NCBI RefSeq assembly: GCF_965641715.1 | Contig: NZ_OZ282453.1 | Strand: one strand, 5' to 3' | DNA: 64,000 bases | Source: Escherichia coli | GTDB taxonomy: Bacteria; Pseudomonadota; Gammaproteobacteria; Enterobacterales; Enterobacteriaceae | Shown: piece after piece, positions 38,396 to 56,093 of the stretch | Layout: the number at the start of each line of letters is the position of its first letter | Numbering within the stretch: position 1 is the stretch's first letter | The notes under the pieces: generated by a model | What the model was told of the DNA's origin: nothing | The model's input: only the letters and a program-made list of their open reading frames with translations | The model's database searches: none | Translations under genes and position numbers: made by a program

Positions 38396-39082
38396 TTAGA
38401 AGTTCAGATTTTTCAGTGCATTCAGTGCAGAGCCCACATCCTCAGCGTCGCGCAGGGACAGTGCGCCATAGCCCCCGGCCATGAATGCTTTGGCCTGGGT
38501 ACGGGAGAGTCCGACATCACGCAGGACTCTTTCGATTTTTTTCTGTTCGGGGATTTCCCCGCGGGCCAGCGCGTTCTTGACGTCGCTGATCCGCGCCTCG
38601 TCGTTAGACGGAAACGTCACCAGACTGACTTCCCAGAGGTCGATTTCTTTCAGCAGAAAGGCTTCTTTCGTCCGGTCGTATTCCCAGTCCTTCAGGACGT
38701 ACCCAATAGAAAGGCCGGTTAACGAACCGGCCTTCATGTGTGCATGTGCGCGTTTTGCCAGGGGATCATCATCAATGAGCAACCGCCCCCTGACGTAAAG
38801 CCCGACATCGTCTTCCTTCATTTCGGTGTAAACACCGATGGGCTCATCCATGCGGTGCTGCCAGAGCAGCGCAGGCAACGCTTTTCTGTCACTCCACGCC
38901 CGCAGGGAAGCAGCAAATGCCCCGGACATCACCACATCATCGTGACTGTCCTTTACACCAAAGACGGAGCCATATCCTTCAAACTCACCGGAGTCACTGA
39001 CAGATTTCAGACTCAGCGGTACATCAAGACGTTGTTTCGTCTGCATTGGCGTTATCCTTCTGCTTACCGGCTTTACTGCCAT
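38396..39082 (-). CDS. Prohead protease, HK97 family
   Basis: 228 aa; GEFEGYGSVFGVKD...MSGAF motif region. Confidence 0.85.
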   Translation of the reverse strand: MAVKPVSRRITPMQTKQRLDVPLSLKSVSDSGEFEGYGSVFGVKDSHDDVVMSGAFAASLRAWSDRKALPALLWQHRMDEPIGVYTEMKEDDVGLYVRGRLLIDDDPLAKRAHAHMKAGSLTGLSIGYVLKDWEYDRTKEAFLLKEIDLWEVSLVTFPSNDEARISDVKNALARGEIPEQKKIERVLRDVGLSRTQAKAFMAGGYGALSLRDAEDVGSALNALKNLNF

Positions 39083-40265
39083 CGGAGGGTTTCGTGGTCA
39101 TGTTCATCGGTGTGAGATAGACATCACCACCGGGACGCGGATTCATATCTTCCAGGTCACGGCAGTCATTGGGAGAGTAAATTCCCCAGTTAATCCCGGT
39201 GGCGTAGGCTTCAAAACGGGACTTCATATCCCCGCGCAGTAACGCCCCGGCGTTAAATTTGGCGTAATAAACGCCCTGCTTACTTTTTCGTACCAGTCCG
39301 GTGTTGATCCGCTGTTCGATGCGGGTCAGATACGGCACCAGTGAATAGTTGATAAATCCGAGCCCCAGTTCTTCGATATTGTTGAAGGTGGCGCGATCGG
39401 TGTTCTGTACCATGTGCAACGGCACCCGGAACAAACGACAGATTTCTTCAAGCTGAAACTTGCGGGTTTCCAGGAACTGGCTGTCCTCGGCGTTCAGCGC
39501 CATCGACTTCCAGTCCAGCCCCATCTCAAGGATCATCGGGCGGTGAGCATTGCCAAGCCCGGTGTGGCGCTCCTCAAAATCTTTCTTCAGGCGCTCATAA
39601 GCCTGATCCGACAGCGTCTGCTCTGTACGCAATACACCCGACGTCACCGCGCCATTGCTGAACAGTCTGGCCCCGTGCTCTTCGGTCGCTGCCGCCAGCG
39701 ATATTGCCTCGCGGGCATAGGCGATGGGATTCAGTCCCACCAGGCCGTCCAGCGTCAGCGTGCGCACATGCCAGATATCCTCCTGGGTCAGCACATCCGT
39801 GGAGCCGTCCGGGAATGTGACCTGATAGACCGGCTCCCAGCTACTGTTAAGCTTCGGTACCACACAGCCAGGATCGACGGGCAGCAGTTCAGCCACTTCG
39901 CCAAATGCTTTCACTTTGTAGGCGTAAAAGTTCCCCCTCAGGCACAGACAGGTGACCACCAGCTCCCAGAACTCCTGCGGCGTCATATATCCATTGGGAT
40001 GCGTGGAGATCAGCTTATGCAGACGTTCGCCGGTGGCTCTCTGTTTCAGGCTGCCGTTCAGGTGATACAGATTGCAGGGCAACATCCCGACCGACTCTGC
40101 CAGCACCCTGACGCAGGAAAAAACCGCCGTCAGTCGCATGGCCCGCTGGCTGCTGATCTGCTTTCCGGTATAGGTGTCGTATGACAGCCCGATAGCATCT
40201 GCCAGCTCTGCTGGCGTGGTCACCGGCGCGTCACTTTTTCGTTGAAATAATCCCGAAAAGAACAC
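39024..40265 (-). CDS. Portal protein, HK97 family
   Basis: 413 aa; LEEICRLFRVPLHMV motif region. Confidence 0.85.
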   Translation of the reverse strand: MFFSGLFQRKSDAPVTTPAELADAIGLSYDTYTGKQISSQRAMRLTAVFSCVRVLAESVGMLPCNLYHLNGSLKQRATGERLHKLISTHPNGYMTPQEFWELVVTCLCLRGNFYAYKVKAFGEVAELLPVDPGCVVPKLNSSWEPVYQVTFPDGSTDVLTQEDIWHVRTLTLDGLVGLNPIAYAREAISLAAATEEHGARLFSNGAVTSGVLRTEQTLSDQAYERLKKDFEERHTGLGNAHRPMILEMGLDWKSMALNAEDSQFLETRKFQLEEICRLFRVPLHMVQNTDRATFNNIEELGLGFINYSLVPYLTRIEQRINTGLVRKSKQGVYYAKFNAGALLRGDMKSRFEAYATGINWGIYSPNDCRDLEDMNPRPGGDVYLTPMNMTTKPSDGSKAGKQKDNANADETTS

Positions 40266-40447
40266 TATTTACCTCCGCCGACAGACGGCTGTGTACGGTC
40301 GAGATATCGCGCCACCAGCCACGACCAGAACAGGCACAGCCCCCCGGCAACAACAAAACCCGCCGGGGGATAAATCAGCCAGGCACCATACGCCAGCAAA
40401 AGCGCACCCAGCACGCCCACCAGTGGTGCGAGAATTATCAGAAACAT
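40265..40447 (-). CDS. Small two-helix membrane protein between terL and portal
   Basis: 60 aa [49 protein letters not shown]; two hydrophobic helices. Confidence 0.35.
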
Positions 40448-40458
40448 AATGACCTCGG

Positions 40459-41195
40459 TTAAAGCGAGCGGATGCCCACGCTGACCAGATGTTCAGACAG
40501 ATCCGGCTCCGGTTCACCACCATTGACCAGCATCCGGCTCATTGCTGTAAACATCGCAACAGGGCCGTCGATTTTGGCTTCCAGCGTGGATTTATTCGGG
40601 AAGATATTGTCGTTTTTGTCCGGTTTTACCGTAACGTTAGACATCATCCAGTTCATGACCGGATGATTGCTGTGATGGAAACGCCCGGCATAGACCAGTG
40701 ATTCCGTTTCCTTCATGGCCTCTGACAGATTGCGAACCGTCTGCGGAACCTCCACCAGCGGTATCCCTTCTTCAGCCAGTGCCAGGCTGAACTGCATCGC
40801 GCTCCACGGGTCAAATCCCAGCTCCCTGAGGTTTTCACCACCAATCCATTCCAGTAAGTCACTTTTTATCTGAGCATGATCGATAACATCACCATCCGTC
40901 AGAATCAGCTTATCCATCTCCGCCCACTTCCGGTAAAGTTCTGCCTGCTGCCGCGAGCATCGTTCCAGCCGTCCTTCCGGAAGCCAGAATTTAAAATCGG
41001 CATGAACATGCCCGTTATCCGTTCGCCAGAGTTTTGCCGCCGCACAGATATCAATCTTATGAGCAAGGTCAACGCCGACCCACATGGGATACGTTTTCAG
41101 CTCATGTCGTGGGGCAATGTATTCGCACTTCTCCCACTTAATCATGTCCATCCAGGCAGACTCTGCTGTTACCCACACATTCATGTGTTTTGTGA
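40459..41195 (-). pseudogene. Prophage terminase large subunit, C-terminal fragment, separated from its N-terminal part by the satellite insertion
   Basis: 241-aa ORF MNVWVTAESAWMDMIKWEKC... aligns residue-for-residue with the middle of the satellite TerL (NIWCQGATPWMGNGAWAEC...). Confidence 0.8.
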
Positions 41196-41270
41196 GAATA
41201 TTTCAAGTTTTTTAAAATCACCTGTATATCAATCATTTAAAATGAAAAAACAGTCTTTATAAATCATCGA

Positions 41271-41292
41271 GCAATACACAGCGCAATACACG
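41271..41292. repeat. Tandem GCAATACACAG / CGCAATACACG motif near the satellite left end; candidate integrase arm site
   Basis: Same motif occurs as a tandem pair at 56094-56116 beside the int start. Confidence 0.45.
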
Positions 41293-41479
41293 TATCTGTA
41301 TTGTTTTAATGCTGATACACACCGTTTTTTGATACAGTGATTCGACCTACCATCGCGAAGCATTTTTTATTTCTTGTGTGTAACAATCTGACGAGGTGAG
41401 CACTCAAAGAGATAAGAGGCAGTAGAAATTTCGATCCCCCCCCTGAATGCAATTTTTCGTATATATATATACAAAACAG

Positions 41480-41636
41480 TGCGGGTTATGCGGGTTAGCG
41501 GGTTATCTTCGCGTGCTAAGTATTTTTTACTCTTTAATATCAATACGTTAAAAAACAACGTATCTAAATATCAGCCAGAATGTAACCCGCAAGACATTCA
41601 AAATAACCCGCAAACACCACTCAAATAACCCGCAAA
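41480..41636. repeat. Iteron cluster B: three direct TGCGGGTTAT-like copies and three inverted ATAACCCGCAA copies around an AT-rich spacer
   Basis: Direct copies at 41480-41508; inverted at 41582-41591, 41603-41613, 41626-41636; same consensus as cluster A. Confidence 0.6.
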
Positions 41637-41714
41637 AACATCCCTGAAAGTGGGTGCCGATAATACTGAAAATTTATTCCATTAAATGAGCATTGTCCTC
41701 TCTCATCCATTCCG

Positions 41715-43376
41715 TTACACACCATCAAACGTCGCAAGCCGCTCTTTGTGGCTGTCGCTCATATCGAATGCAAATTCCTCATGCTCTGCCTGGAATGTGC
41801 CAAACGCCATCAGCGCCGCAACGCTCGGGTCTATCTTGTTGGATGATTTTTTCTTGTTCGGCTTGATATTGGCGTTCGCGTCACTCTGCATCACAACATT
41901 ACTCATTGACCAGGCCAGCACCGGATCACCACGATGCACAATCACCTTCCGGTTAACAAAAACTTCGAACGATTTCGCCGCCGGACTGAAACGAAGGTAC
42001 GTTTGCGGGAACGGCTCCACCTCAAATCCCGCCCCCTGTAGCTGTGTTCTCAGGTGAGTGGCGTTCCATGTATCGAAGCCCACCAGCCTGATACTGAAAT
42101 TCTCTGCATCCACCATGATGTCATCACGGATACGGTCATAATCAATGCAGTCACCCGGTGTTGTGCGTATCCAGCCCGCCTTTACCCACTGGCGATAAAT
42201 GGCGCGGTTTTTATTGGCGGGGTTCTGTAACTGAAATTCCGGCAGATAGTGACGGGAAACCAGCATAATCTTTTTACCGACCGGAAAGGCATAGCACACG
42301 CTGGAAATATCGCTGGTTGATGATAAGTCCAGCCCCACGTAGCACTCCTGCCCGTATAAATCCGCCTCCGCGAACGTTCCGGCGCACTCCGCCCATGCAC
42401 CGTTACCCATCCACGGCGTAGCCCCCTGACACCAGATATTGAATCGCTTGGTGAGCATTTCCACCCACTGCGACGGAATACCCCGCGCTTTCTGGATGGT
42501 TGAGGCCAGTTTTTCACGATCGACGGAAACATCGATATTGGGATTCGCCTTTATCCACATCGCCGGATCGTCAACCTCGCTTTCATCATCCAGCTCGTAA
42601 ATCAGTACGAACATGGATTCGTTCACCTCTTCACCATCCAGTATCTGGCAGCAATAGTCGTAGTGTTGTTTACAGGCTGAAACAACGTTGCTCCCCGATG
42701 TGGTGATGGCAAATAATAACCCCTCCGGACGCGCCCCCATTCCCAGTTCAAGCGCGGAATAAACCCCGTTGTCAGGGTGCAGGTGATATTCATCTACAAT
42801 GGCAAGACTCGGGTTTGTACCTTCAATGGTTGCCGCTTTTGCTGCCAGTGGCTTTAACAGGCTGTTGGTTTTCGGGTGTATCACCTTGTGTGCCTGAATA
42901 TTTACCCGCTTTCGTAACGGTCGGGATAAAAGGCACATCTGACGCGCATCATCAAACACGATCCGCGCCTGATCACGACTCACGGCGGCGGTGTAAATAT
43001 CCTGCTGCCCGTTTTCCATAACCAGAAACCAGTTAGCCAGGATAGCGGCGACCGTGGATTTGGCATTTTTTCGCGGTACTTCAATGAATGCGCTGGTGTA
43101 TTTGCGCCGTCCGGTGGCCTTAACCTTAAAGCCCAGGATGCACGCAAAGGCGAACTGCTGCCACGGCTCCAGCTCAATGGGGCTACCGCGCATTGCGCCT
43201 TTTACGTGCGGACACACCCTGGAAAAGGCAATAAACTGCTCCACGACCTCCGGATCGAACGTGTAAAGGGGGTTTTCAAGGTCAGAAAAATACCGTTTAA
43301 CGGCCTGTTTCAGTCGTTTACAGGCCGTAATTTTGCCGTTTTTTACGCCTTCTGCGTACTCATGCCAGGCGGTCAA
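41715..43376 (-). CDS. Terminase large subunit (satellite copy, intact)
   Basis: 553 aa; ATPase and nuclease regions; homologous to but diverged from the interrupted prophage TerL. Confidence 0.9.
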   Translation of the reverse strand: MTAWHEYAEGVKNGKITACKRLKQAVKRYFSDLENPLYTFDPEVVEQFIAFSRVCPHVKGAMRGSPIELEPWQQFAFACILGFKVKATGRRKYTSAFIEVPRKNAKSTVAAILANWFLVMENGQQDIYTAAVSRDQARIVFDDARQMCLLSRPLRKRVNIQAHKVIHPKTNSLLKPLAAKAATIEGTNPSLAIVDEYHLHPDNGVYSALELGMGARPEGLLFAITTSGSNVVSACKQHYDYCCQILDGEEVNESMFVLIYELDDESEVDDPAMWIKANPNIDVSVDREKLASTIQKARGIPSQWVEMLTKRFNIWCQGATPWMGNGAWAECAGTFAEADLYGQECYVGLDLSSTSDISSVCYAFPVGKKIMLVSRHYLPEFQLQNPANKNRAIYRQWVKAGWIRTTPGDCIDYDRIRDDIMVDAENFSIRLVGFDTWNATHLRTQLQGAGFEVEPFPQTYLRFSPAAKSFEVFVNRKVIVHRGDPVLAWSMSNVVMQSDANANIKPNKKKSSNKIDPSVAALMAFGTFQAEHEEFAFDMSDSHKERLATFDGV

Positions 43377-43716
43377 GCTCGTCCTCTTCCTCTGTTTCCG
43401 GTGGATTTCTGCGGCGACTTACCGGGTCAAAACCCAGCAAAGAAGCCATTTTGATCATTATTCTTTCAGCGTCAGCCTTTGCGCTCAGGGCGGGGTTTCT
43501 GCTCTCGCTGCCCTGACTGTTAACAATGCTGAACCCGCGCGTGGCAAGGTCTTCGACGGCTTTGCGGTATATGGAGTAGTTAACGCAATACAGCTCCAGA
43601 TTGCTCCAGTCGGCGGGGGTAAGGTCTTCCCGTCCGGAAAGCTGGCGCGATTTTTCCTTCCACTGCCTGACCGCGATTTCATCCAGGTAAGCGGGGGCTT
43701 TTGGTGGTCTTGCCAT
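43360..43716 (-). CDS. Terminase small subunit, P27-like (satellite copy)
   Basis: ORF 43360-43857; likely start MARPPKAPAYLDEIAVRQWKEK; homologous to prophage TerS at 57273-57755. Confidence 0.75.
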   Translation of the reverse strand: MARPPKAPAYLDEIAVRQWKEKSRQLSGREDLTPADWSNLELYCVNYSIYRKAVEDLATRGFSIVNSQGSESRNPALSAKADAERIMIKMASLLGFDPVSRRRNPPETEEEDELDRLA

Positions 43717-43814
43717 GTTCTTTTTTCGCCCAATTATTTTCAAAAAAATTCCCGTGCACAAAAATTTGAGGAGGCGGTCGGTGTCCGGCAGGGACGGTTT
43801 TGTCCTGAAAACCT

Positions 43815-43825
43815 CCCCCCCCCCC
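43815..43825. repeat. Homopolymeric C11 tract between satellite HNH and terS
   Basis: Counted directly: 11 consecutive C on the plus strand, about 100 bp upstream of the terS start. Confidence 0.6.
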
Positions 43826-43835
43826 TCTGACGGCC

Positions 43836-44021
43836 TCACCAGCGATTGCGAAAACATTCCATGACCTCGCGGTCACGGTCGGTTAATCGCTTCGCTGTGG
43901 TGCGTTCTGTGCGCCCTGTCCTGTTGGCTTTGTGCCCTGTCTCCTGTGTCTTCCATAAGTCACGCTGCCTTATCAGTCCACGTATCAGCCTGTTTTGCTC
44001 CTGTTCAGTCATCATCGCCAT
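43836..44021 (-). CDS. Small hypothetical ORF between HNH and terS
   Basis: About 61 aa MAMMTEQEQNRLIRGLIRQRDLW...; basic protein; may not be expressed. Confidence 0.25.
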   Translation of the reverse strand: MAMMTEQEQNRLIRGLIRQRDLWKTQETGHKANRTGRTERTTAKRLTDRDREVMECFRNRW

Positions 44022-44445
44022 ACATCCAGTCGTTACGGTGTGCCGCCCGTTCTTCCTGCTCGCGATACATACCCGCCTTACGGTTCGCTTTCGTGGCTGG
44101 ATCTTCCCGTGTTGTCTTACGGTTATGGCACGTCTGGCACAATGCCTGGTGGTTCCACTCAGGCCAGAAGAGAACATCACCGCCGCCATTGATGGGAATG
44201 ATGTGATCCACCACAAGAGCTGGCGTATAAATCCCCTTAGCCAGACAACGCACGCATAACGGATTTTTGCTCAGGTACAGGGCGCGGTATTTGTCCCACT
44301 GTCGGGAATACCCGCGCGCGCGGCGGTGTCCCCGTCTGGCATCCTCTGCACGCCATGCAGCCCGCCTGTGATCTTCGCACTTGCCGGACTTCACGCGCTT
44401 ATTACAGCCCGGCTCAGTGCATCGCCTTAATGGTTGCCACGGCAT
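44005..44445 (-). CDS. HNH endonuclease (packaging-associated, satellite copy)
   Basis: 146 aa; Cys-rich HNH core VDHIIPINGGGD...CQTCHNRKT; sits next to terS. Confidence 0.85.
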   Translation of the reverse strand: MPWQPLRRCTEPGCNKRVKSGKCEDHRRAAWRAEDARRGHRRARGYSRQWDKYRALYLSKNPLCVRCLAKGIYTPALVVDHIIPINGGGDVLFWPEWNHQALCQTCHNRKTTREDPATKANRKAGMYREQEERAAHRNDWMYGDDD

Positions 44446-44744
44446 CAGTACACCCCTACATCACGATAAACCGACCAGAGCGCAGAAATAGCCATAGGCA
44501 GTTCAGACTGCTCCACAGGTGAAACCGCTTCCCTGTTCTCGTACAGGAAAGCGATGTACATCAGGCAACCAACACGTATTGCCGGGGTAAATTCCAGCCC
44601 GTCTTCAAAACGTTTCCCGATATGCTTCTGGCAGGCTTCCAGCGCCGCATCGGTATACATTTTCAGAAGTTCGCCCTCACCTGAGAAGTCATCAAGGCGA
44701 AGATGTGCCCTGACTTCATCAGGTGTAATTTTTTCTTCACTCAT
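44445..44744 (-). CDS. gp6-like head-tail connector protein (satellite copy)
   Basis: ORF 44445-44825; likely start MSEEKITPDEVRAHLRLDDFSGEGELLKMYTDAALEA. Confidence 0.6.
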   Translation of the reverse strand: MSEEKITPDEVRAHLRLDDFSGEGELLKMYTDAALEACQKHIGKRFEDGLEFTPAIRVGCLMYIAFLYENREAVSPVEQSELPMAISALWSVYRDVGVY

Positions 44745-46041
44745 CTTTTTCACCTTTAATTTCCACCGTCTGCTTCCATGCCTGGCTGAACTCGTCACCA
44801 CCTTCACGCGGCGGCATCCCCTCACGTTCGCGGGCTTCGTTCGGATTCATGATCCCGTTCTTAATCCCTTTCTCATACGTGGCGTAACGCTCGGTTGGAG
44901 TAGCGCGCAGTAAATCGGCTGAATCAAACTCAACCAGATAACGGGTACCAGGTATGGGAGAAGCCACCAGCAAAGCGGCCTTAATTTGCTGTTCGAAGTT
45001 CGCCAGCCATGGGCGCATTGTCATGGTCAGAAACGCGCGGCTTGCCTCACTGAAATTGCTGTAGGTGCTGTTGCTGTATTCCTGAAGAAAAATCGGCGAC
45101 ACGTTGAACATCCGGGCGATGTCTTCAATGGAGAAGCGACGGGAGGCCAGCCATTCTGCATCCTGGTTACTCATCCCCAGTTGCTTGTAATCCATACCCC
45201 CTTCAAGGATTGGCGTTTTTCCGGCATTTTTCGCCCCCTTGTAGCGTTCCAGGGCGTCTAATGCCTGTTTACCTTTCACGCCGTCCAGCCATTCGCCTGA
45301 CGTGATAATCCCTGCCGCCATCATGCCATCTTTCATAATGCTGGCTCCGTGACGCTGTTGAGCAAGGCCAAGCCCCAGCGCCTCACGGCAAATCGTGACA
45401 GGGGAGCGCCCCAGAAAGCCATCATCCGAGGCATAGCGGAGATGCAGAACTTCTTCCTGCAAATACGTGCGCACCGTTCCTGTATAGGGTTCGGTGATGG
45501 TATAGCGGTATTTGTGTGCGCCAGTGCGTTCCGGTACAACACACCCCGGCGCATAAGGATGAAGTGATTTTGGCTGACCGTCCCGCCCCCACTCAATAAC
45601 CGCATAGGCGTTACCGTTCAGCAGGCAGTGACGCATCATTGTGCGTTTAAACTGGTAAGGTGTCTGGCACGAATTAGGCTGCTCATTCAGCAGAATATCG
45701 ACCGGGTGACTGTCCAGCCATTCCCGCGCCTCCCTGCCCTTGTCATTGCGTACCAGATACAGATAACACGGCATCGTGGCCACCGCCTCAGCGATGACAG
45801 AAACCGCGTTCATCACAGCAGGCAATGATTCAGCCGTCCCGGCAGAAACATATTCTCCGGATCCGGTATTCGGTACGCCGGACAGCGCCAGAAAATCATC
45901 AATGGACAGGTTACGCAGATCGCTTTTTTTACGACTAAAAGGCCACCACATATCACAACCCCGCCAGTTCAGCCCAGCGATGACGATTATTTCCTGTCGG
46001 GCGTAATTCAGGGTGCTGTGCAAACAACGAACGGTGGGCAA
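44737..46041 (-). CDS. Portal protein, HK97 family (satellite copy)
   Basis: 434-aa ORF; FSIEDIARMFNVSPIFL region; true start may be MWWPF near 45951. Confidence 0.85.
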   Translation of the reverse strand: MPTVRCLHSTLNYARQEIIVIAGLNWRGCDMWWPFSRKKSDLRNLSIDDFLALSGVPNTGSGEYVSAGTAESLPAVMNAVSVIAEAVATMPCYLYLVRNDKGREAREWLDSHPVDILLNEQPNSCQTPYQFKRTMMRHCLLNGNAYAVIEWGRDGQPKSLHPYAPGCVVPERTGAHKYRYTITEPYTGTVRTYLQEEVLHLRYASDDGFLGRSPVTICREALGLGLAQQRHGASIMKDGMMAAGIITSGEWLDGVKGKQALDALERYKGAKNAGKTPILEGGMDYKQLGMSNQDAEWLASRRFSIEDIARMFNVSPIFLQEYSNSTYSNFSEASRAFLTMTMRPWLANFEQQIKAALLVASPIPGTRYLVEFDSADLLRATPTERYATYEKGIKNGIMNPNEAREREGMPPREGGDEFSQAWKQTVEIKGEKDE

Positions 46042-46513
46042 TCTCCACGCCGGATTCGGGATAAGCAGGCATCGACGTTATCGTGATTTCACGGAGTTCT
46101 GCGGCGGTAACAGTGCGCAGATACGGTTTTTGCGCGATATTCCACTCTTCGCATAATGCGCGAAAGCCAAAGCTCATTCCTGTAATGTCGCCACGCTCCA
46201 CCAGCGTAAGCACATCTTTTCCAAGCTGGGTATCAGGCGGTGTCAGTTCAAAACGTAGCCCGGTGTTGTCCTCAGTCAGTACCAGTGTTCCGGATTTGGT
46301 GCGCCCCAGCAGTCGGGTATAGTCATGCTCATACAGGCAGCGCACATCATTACCCGCCGCCAGATAGTCAGCAAAAGCCCCCGGCGTGAACTGTTCGCGG
46401 AATTCGTCCCAGATAATTTCTGAAAGGCTGTTCCAGCGAACGGCATACCCCACCAGCTTTTTATTGCTGGCGGTCAGTTCAGATGTGCGGATTTCAAAAT
46501 CGGTGTTTTTCAT
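45953..46513 (-). CDS. Prohead protease, HK97 family (satellite copy)
   Basis: 186 aa; VGYAVRWNSLSE...FTPGAF motif region. Confidence 0.85.
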   Translation of the reverse strand: MKNTDFEIRTSELTASNKKLVGYAVRWNSLSEIIWDEFREQFTPGAFADYLAAGNDVRCLYEHDYTRLLGRTKSGTLVLTEDNTGLRFELTPPDTQLGKDVLTLVERGDITGMSFGFRALCEEWNIAQKPYLRTVTAAELREITITSMPAYPESGVEIAHRSLFAQHPELRPTGNNRHRWAELAGL

Positions 46514-46567
46514 CGGTGTACTCCATAAAGCTGAAAAAGGAGGCCGCAGCCTCCTCCTTACTCATGA

Positions 46568-47737
46568 CTAGCCAGCTTTCATTTCCAGAATTTTGATGGC
46601 GTTTGAATCCACCACACCACCGCCCAGATATTTATCCGTGTGGACCTTGTAGAATCCGGGCTCAGTAATGTTGTCCGGTCGGGTGCGAATCCCTGTTACA
46701 TGATCAACGATGAAATAACCACGACTGAAATCGCCAACCGCTAGCGGTGCTTTTCCTGCGCCGATGTCCGGCATGGACTCCAGGCAGAAAACAGGACGAC
46801 CAAGCAACATATCCGGCGCACCTTCTTTAAGGCTGTCGCGCCAGATATAATCGCCATTCTCATTTTTCAGCTTCTGTAGTGTCCCTGCCGTGCCCGAGTT
46901 CATCACCCAGACGGCATTTTTGCGGTATTTCGCTTTCAGCTTGTAGAGAATGTCGATCAGTTCGTCCGCTGTAATGGCGGTTCCACTTGCCGCTACCACT
47001 TTTTCAATGGTGCCAAAAGCGCGGGTTTTGTCACTGGTCGCCGCACGGGTGTAAGCCATGAAGCCTTTCGGCTTGCCGTTACCGTCGCCATTAACAAAAT
47101 CATCCTCTTCGGTGCTGGCGAACGTGTCGGCAATTTCGGAGGATAACCAGCCCAGAATATCCACCTCTGAAAAATCCAGGATTTCCTGCGTGGTTTTCGG
47201 GTAGGCGTAGATCGGATTCAGCTTGATGGTTACACGTTCAATTTTCGGGGTGTTGGTTTCACTACGTGCGCAGCCTTCTGTGCCTCGTCCTACAGTTGCG
47301 CCGCCAGTGGAAACCAGTTTCTGAAACTCATTTGATTTTGCGGTCTTCACGGTCGCGATCACGCGCATAACACTGTCATCCTGTAGCTGGCGCATGACTT
47401 CGCGATCAAGCTCAGGAATTACGGTATATCCGCCATCCCTGCCGCTGTCAGTGCTGGTGGACAGTGATCGCACATCTCCGGTTACGATGTAGTTACGCAA
47501 TTCATCAGATGATAATTTCTGGATGCCCGTTCCTGGCTTGCTGCGTTCTTCATCAGCCACAGACTCGAGGCGGTAAATTTCTGTGTCGAGGGAATCGGCT
47601 TTTGCACGCAGTTCATCAAACTGTTTGCCCTCGTCATCGTTCAGGCTGCGGTTTTCACTGTCGGCTTTTTCCAGCAGGGATCGCATCTGGTTTTTCAGGG
47701 CGGTTTTTTGCTGGCGGAGTTCGATTAATTTCTTCAT
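46568..47737 (-). CDS. Major capsid protein, HK97 family (satellite copy)
   Basis: 389 aa; coiled-coil delta domain; GDGNGKPKGF motif; diverged from prophage copy. Confidence 0.9.
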   Translation of the reverse strand: MKKLIELRQQKTALKNQMRSLLEKADSENRSLNDDEGKQFDELRAKADSLDTEIYRLESVADEERSKPGTGIQKLSSDELRNYIVTGDVRSLSTSTDSGRDGGYTVIPELDREVMRQLQDDSVMRVIATVKTAKSNEFQKLVSTGGATVGRGTEGCARSETNTPKIERVTIKLNPIYAYPKTTQEILDFSEVDILGWLSSEIADTFASTEEDDFVNGDGNGKPKGFMAYTRAATSDKTRAFGTIEKVVAASGTAITADELIDILYKLKAKYRKNAVWVMNSGTAGTLQKLKNENGDYIWRDSLKEGAPDMLLGRPVFCLESMPDIGAGKAPLAVGDFSRGYFIVDHVTGIRTRPDNITEPGFYKVHTDKYLGGGVVDSNAIKILEMKAG

Positions 47738-47973
47738 GAAGGTTTTCTCGTATTGGTTAAGATTCAGGACGTGAAACCAACACGGAGGGAGCGCCGCCCG
47801 ACACTCTCGGCATCTCGCAGATCAACCCGGCATCGCGCAGGGGGTCAGGCGGCATTGTGGCGGCTCACGTCTGAGTGCCACACGCCAACATATACATAAA
47901 AATCAGTATGTAAACATCAGCCAGAATCACCGAACAACCTGGAACAACCACGAACAAATAATTTACAAAACCT

Positions 47974-48000
47974 GAAAAAAAGACCTGGAGAAAATCCAGG
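47974..48000 (-). terminator. Rho-independent terminator separating the satellite replication block from its capsid operon
   Basis: Hairpin CCTGGA-gaaaa-TCCAGG followed on the minus strand by TCTTTTTTT; lies between the 82-aa ORF and the capsid gene. Confidence 0.5.
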
Positions 48001-48011
48001 CCTTTATCGCT

Positions 48012-48260
48012 TTATTGTTTCACTGGATCCCGCATTCTGCGTCTTATTTTCCACAGATATTCGATCATCGCTTCCACCTGCTCACGATTGGTTGCGAAAA
48101 TTTCCCCGGTCAGTGAGCTGCGCAGAAAATCATGATGATCCACAACAAACAACGCATCGGAAGAAAGCAGACGGCGATATTTTTTTGCTGTCGTGGTTTC
48201 CAGATCATCAAAACCATGAAACTTTTTATGTTGCTGGACTTCTTCAAATGTCACTGGCAT
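48012..48260 (-). CDS. Hypothetical small protein
   Basis: 82-aa ORF MPVTFEEVQQHKKFHGFDDLETT... Confidence 0.4.
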   Translation of the reverse strand: MPVTFEEVQQHKKFHGFDDLETTTAKKYRRLLSSDALFVVDHHDFLRSSLTGEIFATNREQVEAMIEYLWKIRRRMRDPVKQ

Positions 48261-48793
48261 GTATCCCCCTTTGCCGCCCGGCGCTGGCGCTTGTGCTTCT
48301 CATTCAGCGCCATCAGCCGCGTTTCTGCCTCCTGCTGTTCCTGTGGTGTCACTTCCCCACATGGCTGGCCTTTCAGGTCGTATCGTACCCCACCAGCAAC
48401 CAGGGCGCGGTAATAGCGCGGAGACTGCGCATAAGATGCCAGCGTCGCACGTAATGCCCCCGGCCCGAATGCCAGCCCCCTGACGGCGAGATCCTGCATC
48501 AGGTCGTCGAATATCCCCACCTTAAGCGGCTTCGGTGCTTCCCTGTTGAATAAGTCAGGCCACATCTCAGTGAGGCGGTTAACGCGCCTGCGGTTTTTGC
48601 GCTGGCGTTTGGTCATATGCCGCCACGGTGTCACCCCTGTGGGCTGCCCTTTGCGGCTCTGCTGTGCGTTCTGATTGCCGGGTATCACTTTATGCGCCGA
48701 TGTGGTTTTATCCCGCTCTTGCGCCGCCTGCGTCGTTTTCTGCGGCGTGCCGTAAATGCCTTTCGGTTTTCGGTTAATGGTCAGCTTTGTCAT
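48251..48793 (-). CDS. FinO/ProQ-domain RNA-binding protein (putative)
   Basis: 180 aa; PLKVGIFDDLMQDL...RATLASYAQSPRYYRALVAGGVRYDLKGQPCGEVT matches the ProQ/FinO N-domain pattern from memory. Confidence 0.55.
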   Translation of the reverse strand: MTKLTINRKPKGIYGTPQKTTQAAQERDKTTSAHKVIPGNQNAQQSRKGQPTGVTPWRHMTKRQRKNRRRVNRLTEMWPDLFNREAPKPLKVGIFDDLMQDLAVRGLAFGPGALRATLASYAQSPRYYRALVAGGVRYDLKGQPCGEVTPQEQQEAETRLMALNEKHKRQRRAAKGDTCQ

Positions 48794-48957
48794 GCCTTCC
48801 CCTGTAATTACTCTGTTCGCTGTTGTGAATTAAAACGGTATGTTATCCCCGTACAGGTCATCGTGCTGGCCTGTCTGTTGTTTTGCCCTGTTCAGTGCGT
48901 CAGTGGCCTGCCCCTGTTGGCCTTTTTTGCCGCCCGGTCGCGCCGTTCTCGCACTGA

Positions 48958-49254
48958 TTACGCTGTCTGCGATGACCTGCCAGCCCTGCCGCGTTTCGCC
49001 GTTCTGCCCTGTCCACTGCTTACCTGCATGTTACCCGCCACGCTCACCAGTTCGCCTTTGCGGTGTTTTGCCAGTGCGTCGGCCTGTCTGCCAAACGCCA
49101 GGACGGATAACCACATCGTCGCCGTTCCGTCATCTGCCTGGCTGCATGGCAGGGGAACCGCCATACTCGCCATCGCCATTTGTGTTCCCTTGCTGGTGGT
49201 CTTTAACTGCGGGTCAGCCACCAGCCGCCCGTAAGCCGCTATCTGTGCTGTCAT
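48958..49254 (-). CDS. SSB-like OB-fold protein (short)
   Basis: 98 aa; GRLVADPQLKTTSKGTQMAMASMAV...WLSVLAFGRQADALAKHRKGELVSVAGNMQ follows the SSB OB-fold pattern. Confidence 0.4.
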   Translation of the reverse strand: MTAQIAAYGRLVADPQLKTTSKGTQMAMASMAVPLPCSQADDGTATMWLSVLAFGRQADALAKHRKGELVSVAGNMQVSSGQGRTAKRGRAGRSSQTA

Positions 49255-49317
49255 GCTGTCTGCTCTCCGGTTTTAACGTTGATGGTTACGCTTGTTTACA
49301 CCCTTACGGTGAAATTC

Positions 49318-49442
49318 TGCGGGTTATAATCGCACTTTTGCGGGTTATAACTGCCGTTTTGCGGGTTACGTGCGGGTTATTGATTTCCTTTTTATTCATA
49401 CAGTTAATGCACTTATATACATGATAACCCGCATAACCCGCA
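49318..49442. repeat. Iteron cluster A (candidate satellite replication origin): four direct TGCGGGTTAT-like copies, an AT-rich spacer, two inverted copies
   Basis: Direct copies at 49318, 49339, 49359, 49371; inverted ATAACCCGCATAACCCGCAA at 49423-49442; immediately 3' of the primase gene. Confidence 0.65.
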
Positions 49443-49464
49443 ACTTTTCACCTCACACAGGGGG

Positions 49465-51588
49465 TTAATCTTCTGCCTCAGGCTGGAACATCAGCACGTA
49501 AAAAACATGCTGCTTCCCCCCAATTTTGCCGAGCGCCTTTTTCTTGTAACGGCGATCGTTACCCGCTTCCAGCATTCCGGCAGCACTCAACGCGCGGGCA
49601 AAGTGAGACGGATTAAATCCCTGTGCTATCTCACCCTCAAATACATGCGGGAACGTGTAAAAACGGAACTCGTCATCTTCGTTTCTGATACTCCCCTTTC
49701 TGTATCCGGCAAGTTCTTTAATCGATAAATCACGCTCGTCGGTATTGGGCCACGGAAGGTATCTGCTGAATCCGAACGACGCTAAAAAAGCTTCTGCCTG
49801 TTCAACCATCTGTTTAAATTCCCTGTTACCCGTGCCGAACTCCTTCACCCAGGCATTAAAATTATGCTGTATGGCATCGCGGCATTCCTGCTCATCCCAG
49901 CCAGTAACATGACCTGAAAGCACAAGCGCGGCCTCCAGTATGGCAAATCGCTCCCCCACACGGTGAACCTGTTCGCCGTAGCTCTCCGGTATCAGGTTGC
50001 GCCACCGCTCACGGCATGTCCTTACCGTGTCCTTTGCCTCCTGCTGGTGTTCTGCCAGCCATTTAACCCACTCACGACCCGCCGCCCCGTGATTTTCTGT
50101 CCAGGCATCCTTTAACGCGTCTGCGTGCGCCTTTCCGGTGCTGTATTCGTGAAATTGCGTGGCTTTTTCCATCGGAACGTTAAGCAGGCGGACAAGCTGC
50201 CCCGCTTTGACTTTTATCCCCTCCGTTTTGAGGAATGTCTCAACGTCCATTTCTCCGGTGCTGATTGCCACCGTGCGCCAGTGTTTGATCTCCCTGTTGC
50301 CGCCGTCCTTCGCCCCCTGTAATTTCCCCGAACCGTTAAACAGCGTATAGGCTGACGTGGACACCTCCCGCGCGTTTCCGGCCTGGCCTATTTCATCCAG
50401 GGGTAAAAGCCCGTCATTGTGTGCCTCTGCTTCGTTGGCGATACCTAACGCTGTGCCGTACCAGGTCAGCCGCTGCGCGTCCGGCTCTCCCCATAAACTT
50501 GATGCGATGTTCTGTGTGGTGGTTTTCCCTGCCGATGACTGTTCGAAAAGATGTACCCCGAAGCCGTCAGCGCCCACCAGCCCGATTAATGGTGCGGATA
50601 ACGATACCGCCACACCCAGCATCATGGACGGATTACCACCAGCCAGCCGCGCAACGGTATCGCGCCAGCCCTCCGCCGTTCCTGCCACGGAATAGCCATT
50701 AACAGCAGCCGTTTTTCCGGTAAACAGGACTGGCTTTTCGCAATCACCAATGACCGAACCGTCCGGCATGATGTACGCGCCAAAATGCCAGCCCGTTGTT
50801 GTGCTTAACTGCCATTCCTCATGGCTTCCGCTTAACTGCATCCAGTCAGCCAGGATAGCCCTGTATTTACCGTTGGTTGTTACGTTCAGTCCGTGGTCTT
50901 TCAGCAACCGCCAGCCGTCACGGTCGCCAATGCCACCGCACGGAACCGCCATTGTGATGACTTCATGGTTTGCTAATTTTTTCCAGCGCATCACGCGGTA
51001 ATGCTCTTTACCGATTGTCCCCGTTCCCAGTAGTTCAAGCGGGGAACATAACCACGTCTCAGGCCGGATAATTTCGCCTGACTGCTTATCCACTTTTGGC
51101 GTTACCCAGAAAACACCATCGGCGCGACTTTCAACGCGGGGCTTTAATTCATCATCGCCCTGGATTTCTGTGATTTTTTTCTTTAAGGGCAACACCAGAC
51201 TTTCCCCGCGCTCGTATTCGTCTTTGAGGCGAGGCAACTGGTCGGATAAATCCGCCGGGCTGATGTCAGTTATCCCCGCGTATTCGTATACGGTCTTCAC
51301 GCCAGCCACAGCCAGCAACGTGACGATCTGTGTAAGGCTACGTTCAGTGATGTGCCCTGCGCGGTAAACACGCACACACTGACGGCTATCATCAATAATT
51401 TGATAACCGGTAATATCTTTCAGGTGTTCATCTGACAGAACGACAGGCGGCACATTGTCGGCGGCAATATGCTTACCTGCCCATTCCTGCCACTCTTTCG
51501 CATGGCTCCACGCATCACTACCCGCAAAGATGATAACCTCCGTCATTTTGTCGGCTGGCTGGTGCTTTAAGTTTGGTGCGCGCTTCAT
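49465..51588 (-). CDS. Replication primase/helicase with P-loop NTPase
   Basis: 707 aa; Walker A-like SSAGKTT; largest non-structural gene; adjacent to iterons. Confidence 0.75.
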   Translation of the reverse strand: MKRAPNLKHQPADKMTEVIIFAGSDAWSHAKEWQEWAGKHIAADNVPPVVLSDEHLKDITGYQIIDDSRQCVRVYRAGHITERSLTQIVTLLAVAGVKTVYEYAGITDISPADLSDQLPRLKDEYERGESLVLPLKKKITEIQGDDELKPRVESRADGVFWVTPKVDKQSGEIIRPETWLCSPLELLGTGTIGKEHYRVMRWKKLANHEVITMAVPCGGIGDRDGWRLLKDHGLNVTTNGKYRAILADWMQLSGSHEEWQLSTTTGWHFGAYIMPDGSVIGDCEKPVLFTGKTAAVNGYSVAGTAEGWRDTVARLAGGNPSMMLGVAVSLSAPLIGLVGADGFGVHLFEQSSAGKTTTQNIASSLWGEPDAQRLTWYGTALGIANEAEAHNDGLLPLDEIGQAGNAREVSTSAYTLFNGSGKLQGAKDGGNREIKHWRTVAISTGEMDVETFLKTEGIKVKAGQLVRLLNVPMEKATQFHEYSTGKAHADALKDAWTENHGAAGREWVKWLAEHQQEAKDTVRTCRERWRNLIPESYGEQVHRVGERFAILEAALVLSGHVTGWDEQECRDAIQHNFNAWVKEFGTGNREFKQMVEQAEAFLASFGFSRYLPWPNTDERDLSIKELAGYRKGSIRNEDDEFRFYTFPHVFEGEIAQGFNPSHFARALSAAGMLEAGNDRRYKKKALGKIGGKQHVFYVLMFQPEAED

Positions 51589-51899
51589 TTTGCCTTTCCC
51601 CGTTCACGAATAATTTCACGTACTGCCTTAATGCGTTCCATTCCTGTAACGCGCATGATTCTGTCGATGTCGCTTAATTCTGCTGGTGGTGCTTTACTTA
51701 CCAAGGTGAACTCCCTGTCAAAGCGCATATGTGACGACACGCAGGGATGCGCATAACCTTCGCGGATATAGGTCACACGAAAATCATCGACGGTTTTGAT
51801 CGTTATCGTGCTGCCGTATTTATCCTGGAAAATATCGCCGGGGCGGATTTCAGGCCGAGCGGGGCCGCTGGCAGTAAAGCCAGAATTTTTCTTTTTCAT
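51585..51899 (-). CDS. Hypothetical protein
   Basis: 104-aa ORF directly upstream of and overlapping the primase start. Confidence 0.45.
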   Translation of the reverse strand: MKKKNSGFTASGPARPEIRPGDIFQDKYGSTITIKTVDDFRVTYIREGYAHPCVSSHMRFDREFTLVSKAPPAELSDIDRIMRVTGMERIKAVREIIRERGKAK

Positions 51900-51904
51900 G
51901 TTTT

Positions 51905-52153
51905 TTACTCCAGAGGCAGCTTTTTAGCGGCGAGCTCAATATCAGATGTCAGAGAAACCTGTGTATTTGCCAGGTCTAACAACAAAGAAATAAGAATTTC
52001 TTCTCTGCTATCGGATTTATCGGTGCTAAGGCTGTTCATCCACATATTGACGACTTCCCTGATTTTTTTCGCAGAGTGCAGGGCTTCAAATGCCAGGTCT
52101 TCAATATCATGTTTATTTCGCATAATCGCCCCCGCCATTTTCACAATCAGCAA
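51905..52153 (-). CDS. Hypothetical small protein
   Basis: 82-aa ORF. Confidence 0.35.
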   Translation of the reverse strand: MLIVKMAGAIMRNKHDIEDLAFEALHSAKKIREVVNMWMNSLSTDKSDSREEILISLLLDLANTQVSLTSDIELAAKKLPLE

Positions 52154-52358
52154 TCAGGATGGCTTTTGCCTCATTCAGCGCCATATCAGCACTAAATTGC
52201 ATAACAGCCAGTGAGTGAGGAACGAAAGCCCCGGCATATTCTGTTTCGCTGGTGGCGTGCTTATGCGCCTTGTCTGCGATAACAGAAATATCAATCAGCG
52301 CGTGCATCAGCGTTTTGATGGCTTCGGCGGCTGCGTCCGGACGGGTGTTATTGCACAT
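52113..52358 (-). CDS. Hypothetical small protein
   Basis: 81-aa ORF. Confidence 0.35.
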   Translation of the reverse strand: MCNNTRPDAAAEAIKTLMHALIDISVIADKAHKHATSETEYAGAFVPHSLAVMQFSADMALNEAKAILIADCENGGGDYAK

Positions 52359-52554
52359 GGCGCACCTCCTGACGAATACGGGCAGCGAATACCATCACGC
52401 AGCCAGCCGGGGATTGCTGGCGTGCTTCCTGTTCGCTAGTGGCCTCAATGGTAATCACACGCGGTTGTGCCGTGCTCAGGGCGATAAAACGCCAGATGTA
52501 TTTATTCAGGTTGTGCGAGTCCCGCCCTTGCGGGTGTGTGGTATGATTTAACAT
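52348..52554 (-). CDS. Small Icd-like protein (putative host cell division inhibitor family)
   Basis: ATG at 52554 with GAGGT ribosome-binding site 7 nt upstream; 68 aa ending ...SEQEARQQ...FAARIRQEVRHVQ; family assignment is from memory. Confidence 0.45.
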   Translation of the reverse strand: MLNHTTHPQGRDSHNLNKYIWRFIALSTAQPRVITIEATSEQEARQQSPAGCVMVFAARIRQEVRHVQ

Positions 52555-52750
52555 AGCTACCTCGATAATCTTGCTATCGTTGGTGGTTAGAAGCCCGGTT
52601 AGTGTTAGCGCACTGCCGGGTTTCGTCGTTTGTATTTCAATAAAACCATTGGTGTGTTTCATGTTATTTTGGAGTGAAACACACGTCAAGCCTTTTTTGT
52701 ATTTCTTTTTTGTGTATACTGAAACACACCAAATTTGAGGAGTTTCAGTT

Positions 52751-53056
52751 ATGGCGACTACCAACAAAAACGCTAAATCACAATTGACCACCGTCAGAGT
52801 CCCCCACGATGTTATGGAGGGCATGGAATCCGTAAAACTGGACGGCGAAAGCAACGCCGGATTCATAGTAACCGCCATGCGCGGTGAGATCGCCCGCCGC
52901 CAGGCAGAAGGAAGCGGAGAAAATCCCCTGGTTTCTTCGCTCGATGCACTGGCGCAGGTGGAAAAAATTGGAGTCAAGGCTGCCGAGGAGATCGGGCAAC
53001 TCGTCACCGTCGCGCGTGAAGAACTCCAGCGACGCAAGGTCAAAGAGCAGGAATAG
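52751..53056 (+). CDS. Putative transcriptional regulator, divergently transcribed
   Basis: ATG at 52751 with GAGGA ribosome-binding site 9 nt upstream; 101 aa; only confident plus-strand gene in the satellite. Confidence 0.55.
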   Translation: MATTNKNAKSQLTTVRVPHDVMEGMESVKLDGESNAGFIVTAMRGEIARRQAEGSGENPLVSSLDALAQVEKIGVKAAEEIGQLVTVAREELQRRKVKEQE

Positions 53057-53113
53057 CCACTATCAGCGCCATAGTTTGAGGAACGCAGGCGCATTGCTTT
53101 ACAGGACAGCACC

Positions 53114-56074: not shown

Positions 56075-56093
56075 GTGATTTATAACCCGTTTT

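Follow-up and report, generated by a model that had tools for sequence, protein, structure and literature searches.

A YmfR-family membrane hairpin gene between terL and portal of an Escherichia coli prophage, a possible accessory of the head-assembly module

In phage lambda, the slot between terL (gene A) and the portal gene (gene B) is occupied by the gene of a small protein, gpW, which binds the portal and acts there. A moron is a different kind of small element, an autonomous cassette inside a late operon, with a promoter and a terminator of its own and a base composition unlike that of its surroundings. HK97 has no gene of the kind described here between terL and portal, since the stop of gp2 and the start of gp3 coincide at position 2056. 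In T4, the portal assembles on the inner membrane with a phage chaperone, gp40, and the host protein YidC (PMC4493910). Meanwhile, the cryptic prophage e14 of E. coli K-12 carries the gene ymfR (b1150; IPR020297), which the papers that name it only list among e14 deletions or as SOS-induced (e.g., PMC10012262). A literature search retrieved no functional study of the YmfR family, and the public labels of its homologs conflict, being either "membrane protein", "head-tail joining protein W", or none. The family is among the few unexplained genes inside the well-understood terL-portal-protease-capsid block.

The window analysed here, a stretch of 64,000 nucleotides of E. coli DNA, holds a prophage with a small ORF of 60 codons (183 nt) in this same slot (Table 1), in agreement with the original prediction, which had placed a 60-aa ORF at these positions. 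This ORF is a real phage gene and belongs to the YmfR / phrog_502 family. Its residues 1-55 align to positions 3-57 of the 58 positions of the phrog_502 profile (hmmscan, E 7.2e-27). It shares 55 of 60 residues with K-12 YmfR (92%), which has the same length, the same position between terL and portal, and the same overlap with the portal start, and it is 90% identical to Sb3 of ST64B. Sb3, SfII_03, and the "membrane protein" of phiP27 and SfI are orthologs, grouped with YmfR in phrog_502. The gene family is therefore one that was already known, if uncharacterised, and its member in this window is an ordinary annotated prophage gene. Searches of Pfam returned no family for the ORF at E <= 0.1, NCBIfam was likewise without a model, and PADLOC gave no match.

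Compared to YmfR and Sb3, the window copy differs in what precedes it and otherwise shows no substantive difference. It follows a terL of the Evi/phi467 type (blastn against phi467), not of the ST64B type, and the last ~14 residues of this terL are ST64B-like (tail alignment). Downstream, the portal protein aligns to that of ST64B with zero mismatches across 413 residues. A 15-kb satellite resembling cf-PICIs splits the terL gene in two, and the terL "fragment" itself is the right half.

Table 1 Features of the terL-portal junction in the window
Feature	Positions	Strand	Basis and remarks
Prophage terL, C-terminal part	40459..41202	-	PF20441, E 9.5e-37, for the fragment at 40459-41184; upstream of the hairpin ORF
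Shine-Dalgarno GAGGT of the hairpin ORF	40452..40456	-	Read from the sequence; 4 nt (CATT) 5' of the ATG
YmfR-family hairpin CDS, 60 aa	40265..40447	-	ATG 40447-40445, TAG 40267-40265; phrog_502 match, conservation
Predicted transmembrane helix 1, residues 2-25	40373..40444	-	Hydropathy, AF2; conserved G11, G14, G21, W23
Predicted tight extracytoplasmic turn, Y26-P27-P28	40364..40372	-	Centre of the most conserved stretch (16 residues)
Predicted transmembrane helix 2, residues 29-46	40310..40363	-	Hydropathy, AF2; invariant G35, then R47
Predicted cytoplasmic tail, residues 47-60, variable, disordered	40268..40309	-	pLDDT 58 for residues 51-60
Portal Shine-Dalgarno GGAGGT	40271..40276	-	Read from the sequence; within the hairpin ORF, 5 nt 5' of the portal GTG
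Portal gene, 413 aa	39024..40265	-	PF04860, E 5e-108; downstream of the hairpin ORF

The start of the ORF had been thought to overlap terL, which is not the case. A spacer of 11 nt (CCGAGGTCATT) separates the terL TAA (40461-40459) from the ATG, and the Shine-Dalgarno motif of the ORF sits within it. Both spacer and motif are kept in ST64B, K-12, and phi467 (TGAGGTAATT / CCGAGGTCATT). What overlaps terL instead is an unconserved 84-aa ORF in another frame (40269-40523); pN/pS is 0.9-2.2 in the frames other than that of the hairpin ORF. At the opposite end, the ORF does abut the portal gene as had been claimed, its TAG sharing one base with the portal GTG (40265-40263) in the string TAGTG. The last hairpin codons, GGA GGT AAA, double as the ribosome-binding site of the portal gene. 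To judge from these signals, the hairpin ORF is translationally coupled to the portal gene.

Around the ORF, the minus strand shows neither promoter nor terminator, and the GC3 of the ORF is 62.3%, compared to 58.7-67.9% in terL, portal, protease, and MCP. The sequence upstream of the gene is wholly different between the two terL types, save for its last ~20 nt, which argues that there is no conserved internal promoter. Since the gene has no transcription signals of its own and lies inside the head (late) operon, expression of terL and portal should always entail that of the hairpin. In K-12, SOS induction raises the transcript of ymfR by a log2FC of 4.5, to the same degree as those of the flanking e14 genes (PMC10012262). 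Two further ideas about this junction were considered and rejected. A functional RNA or internal terminator is annotated inside the ORF in the SfII record, but none is predicted here, and the RNA fold of the region is unremarkable (z -0.88). A programmed frameshift between terL and the hairpin, an idea prompted by protein P0260, is contradicted by an upstream open frame that ranges from 3 to 46 codons, with no conserved length, and by the lack of a shared slippery site.

The length of the ORF is by itself not significant, as 107 ORFs of at least 30 aa occur within 9 kb. Within its lineage, the hairpin gene is always present; it is intact in 94 of 94 related loci and found in all ST64B-like matches, so that the absence from related phages which had been envisaged does not occur at this level. 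The pN/pS ratio in the hairpin frame (0.37) is the lowest of the six frames, and the variable sites are distributed as 12/5/18 over the three codon positions. A search by single sequence recovered 163 homologs, one by family profile 997, and the YmfR family amounts to 141 clusters at 50% identity and about 1000 at 90% identity. YmfR-related sequence is present in 2026 of 5426 complete E. coli genomes. In addition to ST64B (Sb3), SfII (SfII_03), phiP27, and SfI, the gene occurs in phages of Klebsiella, Yersinia, Vibrio, Pseudomonas, Mycobacterium, and Streptomyces. The picture changes in the wider portal family, where, among 14 phages sampled from the portal side, the hairpin is present in five and absent from nine. 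The notion that HK97-like phages normally have no gene at this place thus holds for HK97 itself, but not for this lineage and many others. By this comparison of genomes, the hairpin is dispensable for a head of the HK97 type.

Where the gene occurs, its neighbour is the portal. In all 44 genome loci, which represent several phyla, the gene occupies the same terL-to-portal slot with the portal gene next, and distant homologs (38-49% identity) span Proteobacteria, Actinomycetota, Bacillota, and Planctomycetota. Portal is also the next gene for six of the seven metagenomic homologs in this identity range, the seventh (P0145, locus L011) having one gene between. The overlap of hairpin stop and portal start was seen in 28 of the 36 loci examined, and none of ~60 hairpin loci lay outside a head module. 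Mantel tests gave a partial correlation of 0.61 between hairpin and portal given terL (p 0.0005), and of 0.03 between hairpin and terL given portal. For pairs of loci in which terL and portal are discordant, the hairpin sides with the portal in 29 of 29. Evi and phi467 illustrate this pattern, as they diverge by 3% in terL, 74% in portal, and 75% in the hairpin. Collectively, these sequence comparisons indicate that the hairpin is an old companion of the portal, which it tracks, rather than terL, where those two genes have recombined. A hydrophobic motif at the N-terminus of the portal (MFFSGLF / xGLFG) was rejected as a hairpin-specific partner, since comparable motifs are also found in portals that lack a hairpin, such as those of the cf-PICI and Sfi21.

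The description of the product as a small two-helix hydrophobic protein agrees with our predictions. Its Kyte-Doolittle hydropathy (19-residue window) peaks at 2.7, and the AlphaFold2 model contains helices at residues 2-25 and 27-51 with a mean pLDDT of 83. The protein is predicted to be a tight membrane hairpin of two very hydrophobic helices. An N-in/C-in topology, with both ends cytoplasmic, is predicted because lysines and arginines favour the two tails over the loop (K+R of 1.6 in the N tail and 2.2 in the C tail vs 0.17 in the loop). Among 123 family members, P28 is found in 92%, G30 in 88%, and Y26 in 76%. The residues G14, G21, W23, P28, and G35 are near-invariant across phyla, and all five are present in the window ORF. 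Family C-termini often end in GG[KEN], KEG, or EGD. Naturally tandem-duplicated hairpins also exist (P0142, P0160, P0230, and P0252), and P0252 is encoded directly upstream of a portal gene. A Foldseek search of the AF2 hairpin against the PDB returned only V-ATPase subunit e, at an E of 4.8 that is not meaningful. A lipoprotein or spanin was also considered and rejected, as there is no lipobox and the cysteine at position 38 is a leucine in 54% of the family.

Based on these findings, we tentatively infer that the hairpin is a late-expressed, dispensable membrane accessory of the portal/head-assembly module. It would act in the cytoplasmic membrane during lytic growth, probably as an oligomer of hairpins; an oligomer is proposed because tandem-duplicated hairpins occur and because the small residues G11, G14, G21, G30, and G35 are conserved. 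One possibility is that it would provide a membrane site for portal-initiated prohead assembly, as gp40 does for the portal gp20 in T4. In its full form, this proposal would have portal-coupled hairpins form oligomers in the membrane, where they would site or chaperone head assembly initiated by the portal, in many HK97-like phages of several phyla, which we regard as rather unlikely. A role at the portal sits uneasily with the conservation pattern, as conservation peaks in the extracytoplasmic turn with its flanks, and contact with a soluble portal would fall to the cytoplasmic tails, which are both short and variable. Comparison of T4 gp40 to the hairpin family gave no homology (hhalign probability 0.04%). 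That HK97 and most of the phages sampled from the portal side do without the gene also counts against this reading. The co-inheritance of hairpin and portal could also be a by-product of the stop/start overlap together with a conserved, recombination-prone 3' end of terL.

The alternative that survives best, possible if somewhat unlikely, is that of a generic late membrane effector unrelated to the portal, to which the overlap of stop and start would link it in a purely physical way. Such an effector might keep the DNA of superinfecting phages out of the cell in the lytic cycle, or it might alter membrane potential or the timing of lysis. The small size, the two transmembrane helices, and the small-residue faces of these helices are features shared with class II holins and T4 Imm, the conserved part of the hairpin faces the membrane exterior, and the tandem fusions suggest an oligomer or pore. 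The gene is moreover dispensable in many relatives, as accessory functions are. However, if the effector excluded phages through a host-specific target, that target would not be shared all the way from Enterobacterales to Actinomycetota, Bacillota, and Planctomycetota, and a free-standing effector is difficult to reconcile with the confinement of the hairpin to head modules. Judging from the annotation of a near-identical record of E. coli O177:H21, a class II holin, a lysozyme, and Rz1 are also encoded elsewhere in the prophage. Class II holins and the hairpin do share two transmembrane domains and a charged C-terminus, but this trait is generic and not diagnostic, and the holins sit in the lysis cassette by the endolysin, whereas the hairpin gene lies between terL and portal. 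HK97 gp15 and T4 Imm, two superinfection-exclusion proteins, are likewise small inner-membrane proteins of similar size, yet neither is homologous to the hairpin (hhalign probability 0.2% for both), which also lacks a match in PADLOC.

The original prediction had offered two readings of this small membrane protein, a moron and a spurious ORF, and neither of them fared well. As a moron of lysogenic conversion, the gene would be expressed from the repressed prophage and protect the lysogen by superinfection exclusion, in the manner of HK97 gp15. We consider this improbable, even if the product is a small inner-membrane protein and PHROGs places the family in the category "moron, auxiliary metabolic gene and host takeover". 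The anatomy of the locus does not support it, as there is neither promoter nor terminator but only the 11-nt spacer, GC3 reveals no compositional anomaly, the gene is coupled to portal, and its slot is fixed over deep divergence. HK97 gp15 bears all the moron hallmarks that the hairpin ORF lacks, with its own spacer, an AT-rich coding sequence, and a strong terminator. The sequence upstream of the hairpin, moreover, is not kept between terL types, and ymfR is co-induced with the lytic genes of e14 under SOS rather than being constitutive (PMC10012262). The ORF has stayed intact beside pseudogenes of terL and portal in the decayed e14 of K-12, and beside the split terL in the interrupted prophage of this window, but an ORF of 183 nt can be expected to outlast the decay of a prophage by chance.

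We give equally little credence to a leader acting in cis, in which the ORF would set portal translation by termination-reinitiation and the peptide itself would have little function. Such a leader would account for the near-universal overlap of stop and start, for the portal Shine-Dalgarno motif in the last codons, and for the way in which this motif shapes the C-terminal residues. Nevertheless, a coupling device needs no conserved hairpin with near-invariant glycines, tryptophan, and proline, pN/pS is below 1, and HK97 couples terL straight to portal without any such ORF. Finally, the idea that the frame is open by chance in this GC-rich junction can be dismissed in spite of the many chance ORFs of similar size nearby and the absence of a Pfam or NCBIfam model, given the profile match, the deep conservation in a family of ~1000 clusters, the frame-specific purifying selection, the good ribosome-binding site, the confident AF2 hairpin, and the conserved synteny.

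Among known occupants of the slot, lambda gpW is the best described, yet gpW is soluble, whereas the window ORF encodes a predicted membrane hairpin and has no match to the Pfam gpW model (PF02831); for these reasons, the public label "head-tail joining protein W" on YmfR homologs is a misannotation. Closer in kind is phrog_7105, represented by a 53-aa ORF of Escherichia phage Evi and by F1055_0003 of a Salmonella phage, which has the same slot and the same two-helix hairpin and is a distant homolog of phrog_502 (hmmscan E 1.3e-6; hhalign probability 85%). It differs in being shorter, in having a tyrosine in place of W23 and a looser turn (AGLPA), and in accompanying another portal lineage (29% identity). 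DUF1056 (PF06341), exemplified by orf59c of Streptococcus phage Sfi21, has 59 aa and two predicted transmembrane helices, and its gene lies between those for terL and portal in a head module of the HK97 type; it shows no detectable sequence relationship to the hairpin family (hhalign probability 0.2%, no Pfam match) and is a positional analog only. T4 gp40, the head vertex assembly chaperone, is likewise small, phage-encoded, and membrane-associated, and it is tied to head assembly that starts from the portal (PMC4493910 and record annotation). At 114 aa, encoded far from the portal gene and non-homologous to the hairpin, it would be comparable in function by analogy only. Should the hairpin nonetheless site or chaperone head assembly, head initiation at the membrane, for which T4 (gp20, gp40, YidC) is so far the only described case, would prove widespread, and the two-helix ORFs of phrog_7105 and DUF1056, taken as non-homologous occupants of the same slot, would be analogs of the hairpin.

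The 60-residue two-helix ORF (the hairpin) between the prophage terL and portal genes is a genuine gene, belonging to a family that is known but uncharacterised. The presence of an ORF by itself proves nothing, since 107 ORFs of at least 30 aa lie in the surrounding 9 kb, many of them expected by chance. The hairpin protein matched phrog_502 ("membrane protein", E 7e-27), with no match in Pfam, NCBIfam or PADLOC. It is identical at 55 of 60 residues to YmfR of E. coli K-12 (b1150, e14 prophage, "IPR020297 domain-containing protein"), whose gene is flanked by remnants of a terminase gene (ymfN/aaaE) and of a portal gene (beeE). It also shows 90% identity to Sb3 of phage ST64B, and homologs occupy the matching position in SfII (SfII_03), phiP27, SfI, SfIV and one Klebsiella phage. 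A single-sequence search recovered 163 homologs, each of about 60 aa, from Escherichia, Salmonella, Shigella, Citrobacter, Yersinia, Hafnia, Klebsiella, Enterobacter and Buttiauxella; the family comprised 141 clusters at 50% identity in an exhaustive search and 997 at 90% in a profile search. Conservation in related prophages, proposed originally as a check, was borne out by an intact frame in every one of 94 loci taken from phage records and from IMG/VR and metagenome contigs. Among 37 distinct DNA alleles, pN/pS was 0.37 in the hairpin frame vs 0.69-2.2 in the other five, and variable sites were distributed 12/5/18 over codon positions 1/2/3. Because the ratio is low in this frame alone, an overlapping 84-aa ORF (40269-40523) and a plus-strand 52-aa ORF were rejected as genes. 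The gene was already known, being annotated in thousands of genomes under the named families YmfR, IPR020297 and phrog_502.

Coordinates of the hairpin gene, its neighbours, the satellite and tandem hairpin proteins (window numbering unless a locus is named)
Feature	Position	Strand	Details
Hairpin ORF	40265-40447	-	ATG at 40447, TAG at 40267-40265; 60 residues
terL C-terminal fragment, upstream of hairpin	40459-41184	-	241 codons; PF20441, E 9.5e-37
terL last ~20 codons	40459-40520		Evi-type body, last ~14 residues ST64B/Klebsiella-like
Portal gene, downstream of hairpin	39024-40265	-	413 codons; PF04860, E 5e-108
Island (cf-PICI-like satellite)	~41203-56245		~15 kb; starts with tyrosine integrase
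Island junctions	41189-41202 and 56246-56259		14-nt core AATTTTTTCACAAA, imperfect at right junction
AT-rich stretch	41185-41714		530 nt; 36% GC vs 50% in window; short ORFs only
P0252	locus L146, 64-399		Two tandem hairpins, immediately upstream of portal gene
P0160	locus L144, 1500-1808		Two tandem hairpins, different head-module context

Annotation of the family is uneven. Several phage records call YmfR homologs "head-tail joining protein W", which looks like a positional misannotation, as there is no gpW Pfam match; homologs are left unannotated in SfIV, PY54 and Pseudomonas phage SC_9 (59-aa ORF, L154 1319-1498). The public records concerned are ON470580.1, ON470584.1, ON470603.1 and PQ793804.1; NC_022749.1 (SfIV), NC_005069.1 (PY54) and MT121967.1. 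For the family member P0284 the source gives the name "membrane-bound ClpP family serine protease", probably through a spurious transmembrane-segment match. A distant hairpin-bearing phage (L006/L007, 5424-6359) encodes an S49/ClpP-type prohead protease with an NfeD1b_N domain, not S78.

The two hydrophobic helices first proposed were recovered: hydropathy over 19 residues peaked at 2.7, and AlphaFold2, with a 123-sequence alignment, placed helices at residues 2-25 and 27-51 (mean pLDDT 83) before a disordered tail. Mean K+R across the family is 1.6 in the N tail, 2.2 in the C tail and 0.17 in the loop, so the positive-inside rule predicts that the N and C ends are both cytoplasmic and that the Tyr-Pro-Pro turn faces outward. 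Conservation is highest in a 16-residue stretch that runs from the last part of helix 1 through the turn into the first part of helix 2. G35 does not vary, and at least 97% of members have G14 and G21, 92% have P28 and 86% have W23. Small residues align on the helix faces and tandem duplications occur in nature (P0142, P0160, P0230, P0252), from which we infer that hairpins pack against one another. P0160 is preceded by an unrecognised 320-aa protein and followed by an S78 protease. A Foldseek search of the hairpin against the PDB gave no significant match.

The hairpin is a late-operon gene coupled to the portal gene and inherited with it. The original prediction had its start overlapping the terL region and its stop abutting the portal start. 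Only the latter held: the terL TAA (40461-40459) is separated from the ATG by an 11-nt spacer, CCGAGGTCATT, that includes a GAGGT Shine-Dalgarno, whereas TAG and the portal GTG share one base (GGC GGA GGT AAA TAG TG). The same order recurs far beyond enterobacteria. All seven metagenomic homologs at 38-49% identity directly follow terL, and six directly precede the portal gene, the seventh with one extra gene between. Purpose-built portal and terL HMMs were applied to 45 loci from a one-genome-per-species scan covering Enterobacterales, other Gamma-, Beta- and Alphaproteobacteria, Ruminococcaceae, Yanshouia, Streptosporangium, Planobispora, another Actinomycetota genome and one Planctomycetota genome. 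The portal gene lay downstream in 44 of 44 loci having downstream sequence, and terL was the nearest recognisable upstream gene in 44 of 44 having upstream sequence, ending within ~130 nt in 36 of those. With start codons by our own assignment, 28 of 36 loci had a portal start overlapping the stop of the hairpin.

Over 40 loci, hairpin divergence correlated with that of the portal at r 0.71 and of terL at r 0.45; the partial correlation was 0.61 with the portal (terL controlled, permutation p 0.0005) and 0.03 with terL (portal controlled, p 0.23). Where terL and portal histories disagree, the hairpin goes with the portal in 29 of 29 pairs; just a few independent recombination events underlie these pairs. 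The window shows the same discordance: the terL is of Evi/phi467 type, 95% identical to Evi at the nt level and 37% identical to ST64B at the aa level, and its hairpin and portal are of ST64B type (the portal with 0 mismatches over 413 aligned residues). In Evi a different portal is accompanied by another hairpin, of 53 aa (phrog_7105), that is distantly related (hhalign probability 85%, hmmscan E 1.3e-6). The window terL tail resembles the ST64B/Klebsiella tail LSDHIESYGIRSL, unlike the Evi tail LSTLDPDEDLLIL, on an Evi-type body, indicating that this tail travels with hairpin and portal; by analogy with other phages, this fits a putative portal-docking role. As far as the searchable literature shows, the cross-phylum synteny, portal coupling and portal-side co-inheritance are undescribed, as comparative observations and not as a demonstrated new mechanism.

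Portals downstream of the hairpin open with a short hydrophobic motif (MFFSGLFQRK, MAGLFGAIGR, MSFLASIFG and similar; window 40235-40265, L099-L143). It was rejected as a hairpin-specific feature, the hairpin-less island portal starting MWWPFSRKKS. In P0260 (130 aa; compare L105 3880-4010) the terL tail reads into the hairpin frame. This fusion is probably a frameshift mutation or an assembly error and not programmed frameshifting, since the open length upstream is unconserved (3-46 codons).

The terL "fragment" is not a product of decay. Aligned to the window, the terS-terL-hairpin-portal block of phi467 is split into two segments (57857-56246 and 41202-38976) that overlap on the 14-nt core at terL codon ~339. 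The intervening island encodes a tyrosine integrase, regulators, DUF927 primase, SSB, PerC, capsid, protease, portal, connectors, HNH, terS and terL, with no tail or lysis genes found; this is the published set of capsid-forming PICIs (10.1101/2025.02.11.637232). A cf-PICI-like satellite has thus integrated site-specifically in the prophage terL. Together the two terL halves account for all 585 aa of the phi467 terL, and an exact excision would therefore regenerate the gene. The island/terL-C junction occurs in 25 of 5426 complete E. coli genomes. The AT-rich stretch, between the island terL stop and the right attachment junction, might hold a candidate cos/att region of the island.

We tentatively favour a role in lytic growth, in which the hairpin would serve the portal/head module as an accessory at the cytoplasmic membrane. 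Its conservation in hosts whose envelopes differ widely suggests a link to the machinery of the phage and not to a target in the host. Three points speak against this role: the tails in the cytoplasm are variable as well as short, the turn that faces outward is conserved, and many relatives can dispense with the gene. A generic late membrane effector, acting in exclusion, membrane potential or lysis timing, is an alternative only slightly less likely than the favoured role; homology to T4 Imm or to the HK97 moron gp15 was not found. A small chance falls to mechanisms outside those considered here.

The moron first suggested, if expressed in the lysogen, is improbable, and the gene is not built like one. 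The scan of its own strand gave no usable promoter or terminator, and GC3 is 62% vs 59-68% in the terL, portal, protease and capsid genes; HK97 gp15, in contrast, has a 57-nt spacer, an AT-rich coding sequence and a strong terminator. Only ~20-30 nt upstream of the ATG are conserved between phages of different terL types, making a conserved internal promoter unlikely. Under SOS-inducing treatment K-12 ymfR rose by log2FC 4.52, alongside ymfM (4.54), ymfQ (4.78) and tfaP (4.52) (PMC10012262), consistent with a single transcription unit that comes on together with the lytic genes. The SfII record places a "putative rho-independent terminator" within the 5' part of the ORF (L002 2370-2419, window ~40390-40439); none was predicted in the window, where the RNA fold is not unusual (z -0.88). 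A mainly cis-acting coupling ORF is just as doubtful; in its favour, the portal GGAGGT lies inside the hairpin's Gly-Gly-Lys codons, but the low pN/pS speaks against it. Given the phrog_502 match, intact frames and low pN/pS, a spurious ORF can be practically discounted.

The hairpin is old and positionally fixed, yet dispensable for this head type, as HK97 and many relatives lack it. The expectation that HK97-like phages have no gene in this slot holds for HK97 and for nine of 14 phages sampled from 1490 records of the same portal family (26-39% identity); it fails for the window family loci and for the other five, which carry two-helix ORFs: Vibrio K263, Mycobacterium Yeet gp9 ("membrane protein"), Streptomyces Chymera gp03, the unannotated 59-aa ORF of Pseudomonas phage SC_9 and Salmonella F1055. 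In Sfi21-like phages, which infect Gram-positive hosts, this place is also taken by a two-helix ORF of 59 aa (orf59c, DUF1056); no sequence relationship to the hairpin was detected. In lambda, the slot holds the soluble portal-binding gpW. The single citable precedent for a portal accessory at the membrane comes from T4, where portal assembly takes place on the inner membrane and involves host YidC and a phage chaperone, gp40 (PMC4493910). T4 gp40 is not homologous to the hairpin.
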